This document shows positions 32,388 through 59,407 of a stretch of DNA of 64,000 nucleotides, piece by piece (within the stretch, counting starts at the first letter, position 1; every line of letters starts with the position of its first letter). The notes under the pieces are model-generated. The model was given only the letters and a program-made list of their open reading frames with translations, was not told the DNA's origin and made no database searches. The position numbers and the translations under genes are program-made. This DNA comes from Heterodontus francisci (lineage: Eukaryota), in the NCBI RefSeq assembly GCF_036365525.1, contig NC_090404.1:7750001-7814000 (forward strand), in the 5' to 3' direction.

Positions 32388-32909
32388 ATGGAGGTGAAAC
32401 TCTGTCTGACTCTGATTATTGTCCTGATTATAGGTCAGTGATATTGGGACCTTTCTATAATATTCCCAGTTCTCAAACAATTTCACATCTCTATCTCCGA
32501 GTGATTATTCTTTTCCTGTTACTCCGTCTAACCTTCCGTGTTTCTGCTGTTTATTTTCAGAGATGAATAATGGAGACCCAGTGTCCCAGTCAGAACAAGG
32601 GGTCAGATCAGAAGAGGGTGCAGATTCAGCAATAAACTGCAGTTACTCCGTATCGGATTCAGCTGCAAGCTATTATCTGTTCTGGTATCGCCAGTATCCA
32701 CACCAAGCCCCTCAGTATATGCTCAGAGCCGATAGTTTTGGGTATAATGAGACTGTTCCAGGTTTTGAACACTTCAGCGCGAATCTCAACCAAAAACAAG
32801 GCACTTTTCACTTGTCCATGAAAGACTTGAAGATCACAGACAGCGCCGTGTATTACTGTGCCCAGAGACCCACAGTGAATGAGACTGCCTTGGGCCTCAT
32901 ACAAAAATT
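32388..32909 (+). CDS. TCR V alpha/delta gene segment, apparently functional (leader 32388-32433, V exon 32561-32870, 23-RSS 32871-32909)
   Basis: Leader MEVKLCLTLIIVLII, GT/AG phase-1 intron, DPVSQS..INCSYS..YYLFWYRQYP..DSAVYYCA; CACAGTG-23-ACAAAAATT. Confidence 0.93.
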
Positions 32910-35242: not shown

Positions 35243-35793
35243 ATGTTGGTTGTTGCTTTGTATTCATTCCTCACAGCTGCAGCTCTCTTAACTGGTAAAG
35301 TTTACAAGTTTTTTCTTTCCCTTTGAAGGTGTCACTGACATAGAAAATCTACCTGTTAGCTATTTGCAACACATTCTGTCACATTTATATTCGTTGTAAC
35401 AAAGTGATAATAAAAGCTTAAAGTTCTGTATTTCTAAATTTCTGCAGGTGTTACTGGTGCAGACTCGGTCTCACAGGGGCCGGCTACAGCGATACAGTTT
35501 GAAGGAGACTTGGTGACCATTAATTACAACTATTCGACTACTGTTGATTCATATTCCTTACAACTGTACCGTCAGGACCGGGAGAAAGCCCCCACATTCC
35601 TCATCTACATCCCTAAATATGGAGATGTTTTCAGAGCAGAGGGCGTGGGCAATCGATTTTCCGCATCTCTCGACACTTCGAAAAGTGAGGGGAATTTCAC
35701 CATCCGCGACCTGCGGCTGTCTGACAGCGCGATGTATTACTGCGGGCTGAGACACACAGTGACAGGAACCAGAGGGAGCCTCGTACAAAAACA
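35243..35793 (+). CDS. TCR V alpha/delta ORF lacking Cys23 and Trp41 (leader 35243-35294, V exon 35448-35754, 23-RSS 35755-35793)
   Basis: Leader MLVVALYSFLTAAALLT; DSVSQGP..INYNYS..LQLYRQ..DSAMYYCG; CACAGTG-23-ACAAAAACA. Confidence 0.85.
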
Positions 35794-43766: not shown

Positions 43767-44890
43767 ATGCGGCTCCCCGCTCTCGCCGTTTTCTGGGTGA
43801 CATTCATTCTCGGTAAGAAATTTAACATTTTTAAAAGGGATTAATTTCCAGAGGAATAAATTTTCAGAACAGCGCTTTCATGTCAAACTTGTATCCAACC
43901 TGTTTAGACCACAATTGGGTTATTGTGAGCAGTTCTGGTCTCCAGATTGCAACAAGGATATCGGGACACAGGAGAAAGTACAAGAACGATTTGCAAGACT
44001 GATACCAGAATTGAGAGATAATTTAGCAGACACCATTGTCAGGCCGAGGCTCTTTTCTCTAATAAAGAGAAATCTGAAGGGTAACCTGAGAGATATCTTT
44101 AAAATGTGATGGAGTTCGTTAGGACAGAGGGAGTGAAAATGTTTCCACTTGTGGAGAATTCCAAGTCTATGTGTCATAAATATAAGAGTCACCAAAAACT
44201 CCAGTAGGGAATTCAGGAGAAACTTCTTTACCCAGAGAGTGGTGAGAATGTGGAACTCGCTACCACAAGGAGGGGTAGAGATGAATAGCATTGATACATT
44301 TAAGCGGAAGCTGGATAACCAGAGGATGGAGAAAGGGCTGGAAGGATATGGTGACAGAGTGAGATAAAGAGGGCTGGAGGATGCTCCTGCGGAGTGTGAA
44401 CCCTGGTATGGACCAGTTGGGCCGAATGACCTTTTCTGTTTTCTAAATTCTATTAACATTTATGAAACACTGACTGCGAATTTCCACCGTAGGTTCGGTT
44501 CAGGTGAAGTTTTAATCGATGATTTCTGCTTTCTTTAACCGTGTGTTCCAGACCTGAGCGATGGAGATTCTGTTACTCGGCGGGACTCCTCGCTCACACA
44601 GAGGGAGAAGTTGTCACTTTAACCTGCACCTATCCCGGCGATGGTTATTACTTATTCTGGTACCGCCAATACCCAGGCAGACAGACCGAGTTTGCAGTCC
44701 GGAGGTACAAGAGCGGCGGTGATGAATTGAAGGCGGATTTCGCTCAGAACCGGTTTTCTGATACAGTCCAGCAGTCAGACAAGTTGTACCAATTGACCAT
44801 CTCGGAGCTGCGGCTGTCTGACACCGCGGTCTGTTACTGTGCACTGAGTCTCACAGTGATGGGAACGTGCTACAGCCTCATACAATAACT
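43767..44890 (+). pseudogene. TCR V alpha/delta pseudogene with FR1 frameshift (leader 43767-43812, V exon 44552-44851, 23-RSS 44852-44890)
   Basis: Leader MRLPALAVFWVTFIL; spliced frame DSVTRRDSSLTQREKLSL* is out of frame with TEGEVVTLTC..YYLFWYRQYP..DTAVCYCA; CACAGTG-23-ACAATAACT. Confidence 0.85.
43880..44460 (+). mobile_element. CR1 3' fragment within the leader intron
   Basis: YCEQFWSP..KVQERFARLIP; FRRNFFTQRVVRMWNSLP. Confidence 0.85.
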
Positions 44891-52420: not shown

Positions 52421-52764
52421 CTTCACCTATCATTCAGGGATAGATTTGAAAATGTCTGAGACCAATGTGCACAGTTGGTTGCAGGTTGTGTGATAAACGG
52501 ACAAAATCCAATATTATATAATATAAATGCAAAATGCTGCAGATGCCGGAAATCTGAAATAAAAACAAGAAATGCTGGAAACACTCAGCAGGTCTGGCAG
52601 CATCTGTGGAGAGAGAAGCAGAGTTAATGTTTCAGATCAGTGACCCTTCATCATATTATGTTCTTTTTATTTAAGCGCAGTGTGTGAGTTGTGCTCGAGT
52701 TGTCGAATATATATTTTGTTCATGATCCACCCGCTTAAAGTGTCTGTAATCCCCACTATGTTCA

Positions 52765-52929
52765 GGTTTTTGTACATCTCTCTCCGTGCTCTGTATCACT
52801 GTGTGTCTGTAATATCTACCATGCTCAGGTTTTTGTACAGCTCTCTCCCTGTTCTGTATCACTGTGTATCTGTAATCTCCACCACGTTGAGGTTTTTGTA
52901 CAGCTCTCTCCGTGTTCTGTATCACTGTG
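52765..52929 (-). other. Three tandem consensus 23-RSSs (63-bp period)
   Basis: Heptamers at 52923-29, 52860-66, 52797-803; nonamers ACAAAAACC at 52891-99, 52828-36, 52765-73; all spacers 23 bp. Confidence 0.97.
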
Positions 52930-53235
52930 CTGTGCGCCGACTCAGTGCACAATAATACACAGCGGAGTCGCTCAGTTGGAGGTTGTAGATTTCTAACCGG
53001 CTGATTTTCTCGGCAGTATCGATAGAAGCAGAAATGCGTCCCCCGGCTGCGTTTTCCTTGTTTTGATCTCCTGAAGTGTGTCTCTGAAGCAGGTATTTCG
53101 GAGCCTGCCCTGGGGACTGACGGTACCAGTGTACTGTGTATTGACAGAGCCCTGAATATTCGCAACTTACAGTAACGATGTCACCGACAGCAGAGGTTTG
53201 TAGAGGCGGACTCCGGGACACCAGGGAACTGGGAT
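52930..53235 (-). CDS. NAR-TCR supporting V delta segment (leaderless, CDR1 Cys)
   Basis: Phase-1 acceptor then (D)PSSLVSRSPP..VSCEYSGLCQYTVHWYRQSP..DSAVYYCAL; no leader found upstream; extra CDR1 Cys is characteristic of supporting V delta. Confidence 0.92.
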
Positions 53236-56561: not shown

Positions 56562-56658
56562 CGGCTGTGATAGTCACCACCGTCCCGGATCCATCCACGT
56601 ATCTAGTCTCGTAATTGCCACCCCAGTAAACACAGTGTTTCAAGTCAGCATCAAATCC
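56562..56658 (-). CDS. Germline-joined NAR-TCR D-J (unit B) with 5' 12-RSS
   Basis: 12-RSS at 56631-56658; D TTTACTGGGGTGGC (56617-30) + AA + J (56562-614) encoding YWGGNYETRYVDGSGTVVTITA; GTAAGT donor. Confidence 0.93.
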
Positions 56659-56982: not shown

Positions 56983-57308
56983 AGTTTTTGTACCGCGGGA
57001 ATCCGAGGCCCATCACTGTGTGTTGTTTCTGTACTCAGCTTTACAGTAATAGGTGGCGCTGTCTTCAACTCTCACATCTCCAATTTTCAGGGAAAATGTC
57101 TTTTCTGCCTTATTCACCGACACAACAAATCGCCCTCCGTCGGAGATCCGCTCCCGCTCCGTCCCCGTCTGGGTTTGTCTGAAGAAATGTCCATTTTTGA
57201 AATAATGGCATGAATTACCAGAGTCAAAAACACAGGTGATGGTGAGAGACTGACACTCCTTCCTGGTCACCGCTGCCGGGGTCTGTGTCACTGGCTCACT
57301 GGAAGAGC
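56983..57308 (-). CDS. NAR-TCR (IgNAR-like) V segment, unit B, leaderless (exon 57021-57308; RSS 56983-57020)
   Basis: VTQTPAAVTRKECQSLTITCVFDSGNSCHY..ERISDGGRFVVSVNKAEKTFSLKI..EDSATYYCK; short VNAR-like domain without CDR2; CACAGTG-22-ACAAAAACT. Confidence 0.92.
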
Positions 57309-58093: not shown

Positions 58094-58185
58094 CGACTGT
58101 GATAGTCACCACCGTCCCGGATCCATCCTTGTATCTAGTCTTGTAACACAGTGATACCGTTCTCAGTCAGCCCGGTACAAGAACT
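58094..58185 (-). CDS. NAR-TCR J segment, unit A (coding 58094-58146; 23-RSS 58147-58185)
   Basis: YKTRYKDGSGTVVTITV then GTAAGT donor; CACAGTG-23-ACAAGAACT. Confidence 0.93.
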
Positions 58186-58508
58186 ACCGACACCTGAAAC
58201 TGCCGGTCACACATCATCAGACATTCGACGCTGCACAGTTATTCCAGGGAAATCAGATCAATAAATAATATTCCATGTTTCACATTCCCTGTCGGTTCAA
58301 ACTGTTCTTTGTGAGATTCTGAGCTCTTCGTAAAATGGCCAAGGAACACGGGTCGGAGATGGACGCTTCACAGAACGGGAGAAAAATGTCAGACAAAGAA
58401 ATTAGAAAGGCGGAAATTACAATAACCTTAAACCATATTGCAGTGAAAATAACATCAAACCTACAATTCAGGATTCGCTCCCAGTAGTTTCTATTTTAAT
58501 TGTACAGT

Positions 58509-58578
58509 GGTATTTGTTCAGGTCTGTCCCGTCGTGGCCACCCCAGTAAACACAGTGTTTCAAGTCAGCAGCAAATCC
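58509..58578 (-). CDS. NAR-TCR D segment, unit A (coding 58537-58550), 12/12 RSS
   Basis: V-side CACAGTG-12-AGCAAATCC; J-side CACGACG-12-ACAAATACC; core TTTACTGGGGTGGC. Confidence 0.88.
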
Positions 58579-58896
58579 CCCGGTACCTGGTGAGATCTGG
58601 AGATATTAATTAAAAGGCGGGGTTGCTGTTCCCGGATCCAACTGCGAGATCAGGATCCCATCTGGTGTCAGGGGCTTGTAACTGGGATTATTTATTCCCA
58701 ATCGCCATTCACTGACACCAATCCTGGGAAAGATGTCACCATCCGCACACACTCGGCATTTATAAAACTCAAGATGTTAACGGCAATAATCCAATCTATA
58801 AACTAGACTGTGGCGCAGACGGTGCGAGGCGGAACTGTGGGGTTTAAGGGCAGATTAAAGCCGCTTTTTGATTTGTTTCTTTGTTAATCTGCAGTG

Positions 58897-59407
58897 AGTT
58901 TTTGTACCGCGGGAAGCCGAGGCCCATCACTGTGTGTCTCTGTACTCAGCTTGACAGTAATAGGTGGCCGTGTCTTCAACTCTCACATTTCGAATTTTCA
59001 GGGAAAATGTCTTTTCTGCCTTATTCACAGACACAGCAAACCGCCCTCCGCTGGAGATCCGCTCCCGCTCTGCCCCGGTCTGGGTTTGTCTGAAGAAATG
59101 TCCATTTTTGAAATAATGCCTTGAAGCACCAGAGAAAACACAGTTGATGGTGAGAGACTGACACTCCATCCTGGTCACCGCTGCCGGGGTCTGTGTCACT
59201 GACTGACTGAAAGAGCCTGGAAATTAAACAGACAGAGTTTAATGGGCCATCAGAGCCGAAACACACAACAAGGCTAAAACCTCAGACAGTGTCTGTAATT
59301 CGGATGGACTCGGGCAGCTTTATATTAAATCCACACAATGTCGGTTTGTTTGATCGGTACTCACGGGGTAAAAAGACACACAGGGTGAAAACAAGGAGGA
59401 TTCCCAT
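58897..59407 (-). CDS. NAR-TCR (IgNAR-like) V segment, unit A, with leader (leader 59365-59407; exon 58935-59216; RSS 58897-58934)
   Basis: Leader MGILLVFTLCVFLP, GTGAGT donor; SVTQTPAAVTRMECQSLTINC..EDTATYYCQ; CACAGTG-22-ACAAAAACT; TATA-like CATATAAA about 25 nt upstream of the ATG. Confidence 0.94.

Follow-up and report, generated by a model that had tools for sequence, protein, structure and literature searches.

The accessible parts of three reports (PMC6795676, PMC3457774, PMC12227049) describe a three-domain NAR-TCR chain with a supporting V-delta. In shark Ig genes, RAG-type joining in germ cells, with P regions, precise loss of RSS-bounded DNA and trimming, is documented in the available passages of PMC2193156 and PMC2193153. 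In the present study a window of 64,000 nucleotides from Heterodontus francisci (contig NC_090404.1, positions 7,750,001 to 7,814,000) was analyzed. It contains a gene resembling the supporting V-delta, with an array of tandem signals behind it.

The supporting V-delta gene and its signals

The gene and its array were located on the minus strand of the window as follows:

52930..53235, minus strand: exon fitting the supporting V-delta of a NAR-TCR cassette, open V domain, extra CDR1 Cys
52891..52929, minus strand: RSS1 (heptamer 52929-52923, 23-bp spacer, nonamer 52899-52891)
52867..52890, minus strand: linker of unit 1, 24 bp
52828..52866, minus strand: RSS2, perfect heptamer, 23-bp spacer and nonamer
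52804..52827, minus strand: linker of unit 2, 24 bp
52765..52803, minus strand: RSS3, perfect heptamer, 23-bp spacer and nonamer
52741..52764, minus strand: linker of unit 3, 24 bp, end of the array

The exon carries the canonical Cys, Trp and YYC of a TCR-type V, has a splice acceptor at 53240-53236, and lies on the same strand as, and downstream of, a set of IgNAR-like V, D and J segments. The extra CDR1 Cys, which also appeared in the translations of paralogs, is a defining feature of a NAR-TCR supporting V-delta, and we take the absence of an own leader exon, with entry by splicing from the NAR J, to be a further feature of such genes. In gene models of homologous genes from other sharks, the NAR J is spliced straight onto the supporting V-delta exon. 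Nearly all of the 64 longer homologs came from cartilaginous fish (sharks, rays and chimaera), and the closest (92%) was labelled Heterodontus francisci. With this cassette position, these homologs and these splicing models, the exon at 53235-52930 fits the supporting V-delta as outlined in the accessible parts of PMC6795676, PMC3457774 and PMC12227049. The first-pass annotation had given the gene this identity, which held up.

The pattern CACAGTG-N23-ACAAAAACC was matched three times on the minus strand (52929-52891, 52866-52828 and 52803-52765), all three units having the canonical form of a 23-RSS (CACAGTG, 23-bp spacer, ACAAAAACC), and none of 100 shuffled sequences had any match. Tandem Repeats Finder reported 52740-52929 with a period of 63, 3.0 copies, 88% matches and no indels. 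Pairwise differences among the units were 7, 7 and 8 per 63 bases. The 11 variable columns were distributed over spacer (3) and linker (8), and the 16 heptamer and nonamer columns were free of variation (P = 0.028, for this single array). A TGA at 52924-52922, made up of heptamer bases 6-7 and the first spacer base, lies in the V frame. The earlier description of this stretch, namely three perfect tandem 23-RSSs in a 63-bp unit, with intact heptamers, nonamers and spacer lengths, diverged spacers and linkers, and an in-frame TGA overlapping the first heptamer, was borne out on all of these points. Beyond its end, the array shares its flank with two paralogs, L002 and L003, and with the distal portion of the array of L016.

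The plus strand, opposite to the NAR cassette, carries three conventional TCR V exons (32590-32909, 35460-35793 and 44580-44890 of the window), which belong to different families and have one 23-RSS apiece. About 560 copies of a 38-bp satellite, 21 kb in all, occupy 8220-29900, inside the TCR V region.

Arrays across the V-delta family and other sharks

Genome matches to the supporting V-delta at 77% identity or more numbered at least 26; the 25 besides the window gene lay at 77-92% amino-acid identity. Of the 26, 25 were parsed, L026 being dropped for an internal deletion. The first-pass annotation had proposed checking other copies of the gene, and the array was found to be general among them: the 25 paralogs held 100 RSS units in total, with 1-14 per gene (L006 and L010 were under-counted by the parser, and their later decayed units are visible in an indel alignment). 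A second heptamer-bearing unit was present in 24 of the 25, at least two full units in 20 of the 25 and at least three in 13, and unit spacing was 63 in 56 of 75 intervals. The window array is the sole all-perfect one among 13 arrays with at least three full units, and its perfection is not typical of the family.

The array is closely tied to this family. The 6-Gb genome yielded 19 perfect tandem pairs of 23-RSSs, every one with the spacer of the supporting V-delta family, and a control pattern gave none. The DNA matches to the array, 49 as a lower bound, all fell on contig C34, and with none of the 49 elsewhere a dispersed repeat of outside origin was rejected. For comparison, 64 of 124 V matches outside the family were examined, and 12 of the 64 were excluded as having no detected RSS. 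No short-period array was found behind any of the remaining 52, and a lenient search gave a farther RSS-like match at 13 loci (11 with a weak 24-spacer motif and 2 about 460 bp off). In L111 (C34:3,393,517-3,394,607), a V of another family, the RSS is followed after 353 bp by one RSS-like copy that agrees at 31 of 39 bases.

Two other proposals for the unit were rejected. The idea that the linker is a captured D-delta fell because its closest match across 140 kb of D-J-C DNA had mismatches at 6 of 24 bases, and because the two D segments differ. The idea that the 63-bp period keeps the frame fell because the V frame is stopped in 24 of the 25 genes, and because every unit of protein P0049 brings a frame shift.

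Array copy number was compared among paralogs of one assembly, and mis-assembly of short tandem arrays can occur. However, the window units differ from each other at 7-8 of 63 bases, arrays with shared diagnostic units occur at 24 of 25 paralogs, and contigs from two other organisms (C and E) run across from V to array. An assembly artefact or a slippage event private to one allele is accordingly hardly credible.

Protein read-through tails contain at least two units in Hemiscyllium, Rhincodon and Stegostoma, and five in P0049. Since carpet sharks carry multiple units, the first duplication of the unit is likely older than the split between horn and carpet sharks, for which an age of 180 million years is assumed in PMC2193156. 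In the Rhincodon, Stegostoma and Hemiscyllium tails Gln replaces the CAC codon of the second unit, and the second heptamer is probably dead in these three carpet-shark genera, as judged from protein.

Arrays are in places interrupted by repeat elements, and some persist without a V:

L036:5964, plus strand: V-less array
L037:7416, plus strand: V-less array
L037:8923, minus strand: V-less array

One of these arrays goes back to a deletion that fused an intronic CACAG with a heptamer, one is what lies beyond a repeat element inserted into the L016 array, and one is inverted. Within-array distance was 0.086, compared with 0.110 between arrays. With the 14-unit array (C34:10,434,650-10,435,509) excluded the within-array value was 0.118, which is not below that between arrays. 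Because the drop in distance vanishes in this way, homogenisation within arrays is not general.

A literature search, mostly at the level of abstracts (its scope including PMC9248892), gave no account of tandem RSSs behind a supporting V-delta. The figures and supplements of the primary NAR-TCR papers could show the array, and its novelty is provisional. As a practical matter, V prediction based on RSSs would call false segments at such arrays.

Conservation and possible use of the first and distal signals

Changes were counted against the family consensus. Of the 75 distal units 60 were full; the 15 partial ones and the last three linker columns were dropped. First units showed changes at 1/175 heptamer, 4/225 nonamer, 35/575 spacer and 26/523 linker positions, and the full distal units at 26/420, 23/539, 87/1380 and 107/1209, respectively. 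Heptamer change differed between first and distal units (Fisher p = 0.0017), and distal heptamers changed at about the rate of distal spacers. The distinct substitution types in distal heptamers and nonamers numbered 24 of 91, with 24.3 expected. The CAC was broken in 7 of the 60 distal units and in none of the 25 first units, and the signal was perfect in 20 of the 25 first units and in 27 of the 60 full distal units. The 18 intact genes alone, where "intact" is a crude label from frame and Cys, gave the same outcome (15/301 against 55/989; 21/78 against 20.8), and conservation of the first unit only persisted after sister copies were collapsed. On these substitution counts, selection on the first signal only appears to be the best reading.

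No decay gradient with rank was observed among distal units (rho 0.06, p = 0.67), and hence the birth order of units is not evident. Array length was the same in intact and defective genes (p = 0.93), and three intact genes (L005, L009 and L015) have one full unit. None of the 60 full distal units had a spacer indel; spacer deletions of 2 bases occurred in one dropped partial unit and in one V-less array. A raw count of cells gave changes at 49/959 distal heptamer and nonamer positions and at 194/2589 spacer and linker positions, a ratio of 0.68 (p = 0.013) in which the cells are not independent.

Taken together, it is fairly probable, though well short of certain, that the window signals belong to an old, family-wide, RSS-containing minisatellite under turnover, in which one copy is selected. 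The 63-bp unit would consist of the supporting V-delta's own 23-RSS and 24 bp of flank. The array likely began with one old duplication, and units would have been gained and lost, most likely by unequal exchange. Fresh units would be copied from the selected first unit, giving a perfect heptamer and nonamer beside drifted spacer and linker. Because new units may copy the selected first unit, the window pattern can be explained without distal selection, as can the lean of the raw count towards conservation of distal signals. Several points stand on the other side. If selection acted on how many signals of a redundant array still work, it would leave no conservation of single copies; indels crowd at heptamer borders (see below) in a way that plain unequal exchange does not predict, and the raw ratio, the intact spacer lengths and the 27 perfect distal signals all lean away from it.

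If the minisatellite reading is true, the NAR-TCR locus would be a natural dose series of about 25 near-identical V genes with 1-14 signals, which would let the relation of RSS number to V usage, and the rescue of dead-end joins, be asked directly.

The use to which distal signals could be put depends on the reading frame. In the V frame a stop precedes the second heptamer in 24 of the 25 paralogs, so that a distal join is expected to be non-productive, and RSS1 is predicted to be the sole window signal able to give a productive join. The earlier view that distal joins would be non-productive and yet keep an inner RSS is consistent with these 24 genes. L024 (C34:13,659,152-13,659,611, plus strand) is the sole paralog in which the V frame is open through the first unit, its V end being four bases longer, and there a distal join could be in frame with a long CDR3. 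Carpet-shark paralogs are likewise open in frame.

Two D-J-C clusters are present on contig C34:

C34:3,303,000-3,344,000, minus strand: D-J-C cluster with one D and 19 J motifs
C34:3,443,000-3,461,000, plus strand: D-J-C cluster with one D and about 12 J motifs, one of them doubtful

Both were called delta from their 12/23 D segments and from a transmembrane motif that we take to mark them as such. Together the two oppositely oriented clusters suggest that the TCR-delta constant region is duplicated and has many J segments. The nearest D on the same strand as the window cassette is about 4.5 Mb away. As the same-strand cluster has 19 J-motif segments beyond its single D, a rescue is geometrically possible, in which RSS1 would survive a distal join and then be joined to a J further downstream at a D-less junction. 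In thymocytes, some cutting at intact distal signals is probable, leading to a dead-end join that RSS1 could repair with a downstream J, and this would be a tolerated side effect.

Read contigs from one run, which is RNA only by guess, extend over the V exon, and one of them runs unbroken through the second heptamer, as judged from contig-end distances; the depth of such contigs cannot rank parts of a gene. No joint at a distal heptamer was seen among the read-contig matches listed, which a repeat at 52560-52653 dominates, nor was a rearranged transcript of the gene seen, and these read contigs are not counted as evidence.

From the intactness of the distal signals the first-pass annotation had suggested a RAG-recruiting booster, a retry mechanism or decoys that lower NAR-TCR frequency. 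For a booster with rescue, extra signals would help to capture a promoter-less V that lies megabases from D-J-C; a distal join would carry the cassette up to the J segments, and RSS1 would then join a downstream J productively. The restriction of the array to the supporting V family, its occurrence in several shark lineages, the distant same-strand D together with its many J motifs, and the perfect distal signals with unchanged spacer lengths are consistent with such a role. However, distal heptamers and nonamers change at the spacer rate, also when intact genes alone are counted, some intact genes have just one full unit, array length is unrelated to intactness, and the second heptamer is apparently dead in three carpet-shark genera, which leaves a selected booster rather improbable. 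Retry would add no productive attempt, only RSS1 giving an open frame in 24 of the 25 genes.

Decoys would soak up RAG cuts as dead-end joins. They would lie on the D-facing side of the V, as the distal signals do, and distal joins keep the stop in 24 of the 25 genes. Against this, the distal signals lack conservation, the decoy would be leaky as RSS1 survives a distal join and many J remain, and a weaker RSS1 would be simpler, yet 20 of the 25 first signals are perfect. A decoy role is very improbable. There was no sign of a selected booster or decoy. The neutral alternative named beside these functions fits better than they do, but its further premise, that the array might be unique to one allele, fails, the array being family-wide and old.

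Unit borders, pre-joined segments and known systems

Indels between units were sorted into 15 types, shared events being collapsed by hand and post hoc, and alignments that run into foreign DNA at array ends being excluded. Seven of the 15 abut the heptamer on its coding side and leave it intact; 2 cut into the heptamer and 6 lie elsewhere. The seven border types are four deletions (1 base; 2 bases, together with a substitution; 3 bases; 7 bases), an insertion of 3 bases, and V-end insertions of 2 and 4 bases. The excess at borders had a binomial p of 1.7e-5 to 1.3e-3, depending on window size. With V ends excluded it was 5 of 13 (p 8.6e-4 to 0.018), and with a slippage-compatible case also dropped 4 of 12 (p 0.005 to 0.055). 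All three kinds of border insertion (L004 and L006/L010; L024; L022/L023) open with the dinucleotide expected of P nucleotides, although two may have arisen only once and the linker can serve as template for one. Length variants at the 52 other V ends and at 15 NAR V ends were, by eye, internal. A heptamer is the exact starting point of two of the three V-less arrays, in one case with 5 bp of microhomology.

Upstream of the supporting V-delta exon, the NAR segments of the window are arranged as follows:

58896..59407, minus strand: first NAR-TCR V (leader from 59407, V exon 59216-58935, RSS with 22-bp spacer from 58934)
58094..58550, minus strand: unjoined D and J of the first NAR V, 390 bp apart
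58550-58537, minus strand: D of the first NAR V, 3' heptamer mutated
58146 to about 58094, minus strand: J of the first NAR V, 23-RSS at 58147
56983..57308, minus strand: second NAR-TCR V, extra CDR1 Cys, RSS with 22-bp spacer from 57020
56562..56630, minus strand: pre-joined D-J (D end 56617, J start 56614)

In the pre-joined D-J at 56630-56562 the D and J ends are intact and the 390-bp interval from RSS to RSS is gone; the unjoined D/J copy 1.9 kb upstream retains this interval. Two added bases in the joint match P nucleotides of the J end. Among 40 matches, the sole one that spans the joint was the self-match. L043 (G000:C34:7,874,050-7,875,560, minus strand) carries two copies of one in-frame VDJ joint, and at L050:6686 (C34:about 11,269,680, minus strand) a NAR V is fused to a D that has kept its 3' 12-RSS, forming a pre-joined V-D. 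The L043 joint would be of germline origin because it is duplicated; for the window D-J and the L050 V-D, germline origin is inferred from their presence in the assembly.

No leader was found for the second NAR-TCR V of the window (56983..57308). Three NAR-TCR V exons in all (window 57308-56562 and L043) have an extra CDR1 Cys and no leader that was found. They sit between a leader-bearing NAR V and the supporting V-delta, and all three have a pre-joined DJ or VDJ, one of them with a stop. Such an exon could serve as a middle supporting domain in a chain with three V domains (NAR V, NAR V, V-delta, C), an arrangement that recalls marsupial TCR-mu with its germline-joined supporting V. These exons are possibly more novel than the RSS array. 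The signals of NAR-TCR V segments have a 22-bp spacer family-wide (including those at window positions 58934 and 57020, minus strand), and the V coding ends vary mostly by steps of three bases. The 3' heptamer of the first NAR D (window 58536, minus strand) has three mismatches to the consensus, and D-J joining in the first cassette may be impaired, given this mutation.

The crowding at unit borders raises the possibility that the repeat is driven by RAG, with germ-cell cuts at array heptamers followed by open-and-shut joints and by 23/23 hybrid joints of coding to signal ends, formed within one chromatid or between sisters, as the main route of scarring, loss and gain. Besides the border indels, the P-compatible insertions and the V-less arrays that begin at a heptamer, the pre-joined DJ, VDJ and VD segments in NAR cassettes beside arrays speak for it. 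There are also precedents, so far as the available parts of the sources go: germline-joined shark Ig (PMC2193156), open-and-shut joints on single-RSS and 23-23 substrates (PMC2213516), and 23/23 hybrid joints in mouse thymocytes, which are usually trimmed and N-bearing (PMC4315296). However, the tally was made post hoc and by hand and shrinks to 4 of 12 in its strictest form; an (AC)3 run straddles the unit border; the 3-base insertion can be copied from an earlier part of the linker; the 3-base deletion restores the V-end junction, which is also what a crossover would do; there is microhomology in one V-less array; and most distal unit junctions are exact, unlike the trimmed, N-bearing hybrid joints of the accessible part of PMC4315296. 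RAG as the main route is therefore unlikely.

The same points, the post hoc test, the (AC)3 run, the options of crossover and templating and the mostly exact junctions, make germline RAG a likely contributor of scars rather than a demonstrated driver. Within the favored minisatellite reading, some unit borders would have been scarred by germ-cell RAG. A broader proposal, of a recombinase-driven minisatellite in which germ-cell RAG cuts leave inherited open-and-shut scars with P nucleotides and change copy number through 23/23 hybrid joints, in the same cassettes as the pre-joined NAR D-J, V-D and V-D-J, is held only tentatively. If germline RAG is at work, the arrays would preserve heritable traces of RAG cuts made outside lymphocytes at a TCR locus, would be a repeat with an instability driven by the immune recombinase, and would bear on how RAG reshapes antigen-receptor loci.

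The described supporting TCR-delta V of cartilaginous fish NAR-TCR and the horn shark gene share a V-set exon that follows an IgNAR-like V-D-J, the extra CDR1 Cys and a 3' 23-RSS; the horn shark gene differs by its tandem RSS array. Compared with the described cassette, the window adds a second, apparently leaderless NAR V with a pre-joined DJ. With minisatellites (VNTRs) the array has in common a head-to-tail unit of 63 bp, a copy number of 1-14 among paralogs, and interruption by repeat elements. Unlike in these, the unit is a complete recombinase target, its first copy appears to be selected, and indels crowd at the cut site.

The DJ, VD and VDJ joints of NAR-TCR resemble germline-joined shark Ig, as far as the available passages of PMC2193156 and PMC2193153 describe it, in the precise loss of RSS-bounded DNA, the trimming and the P-type bases. 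The Ig reports concern Ig loci and 12/23 joins, whereas here a TCR-delta cassette is involved and single-RSS or 23/23 events would account for the scars in the array. The open-and-shut and equal-spacer hybrid joints of V(D)J recombination show coding-side changes at an intact heptamer and P-type additions, to which the border changes of the array may correspond. Those joints are somatic or made on substrates, whereas the present ones would be inherited, being shared by sister paralogs, and most junctions here are unprocessed. In sequential V-J rearrangement of TCR-alpha and in VH replacement, a retained signal permits a second join on the same allele. Those systems swap coding attempts, whereas in 24 of the 25 genes here a first join at a distal signal would be no coding attempt.
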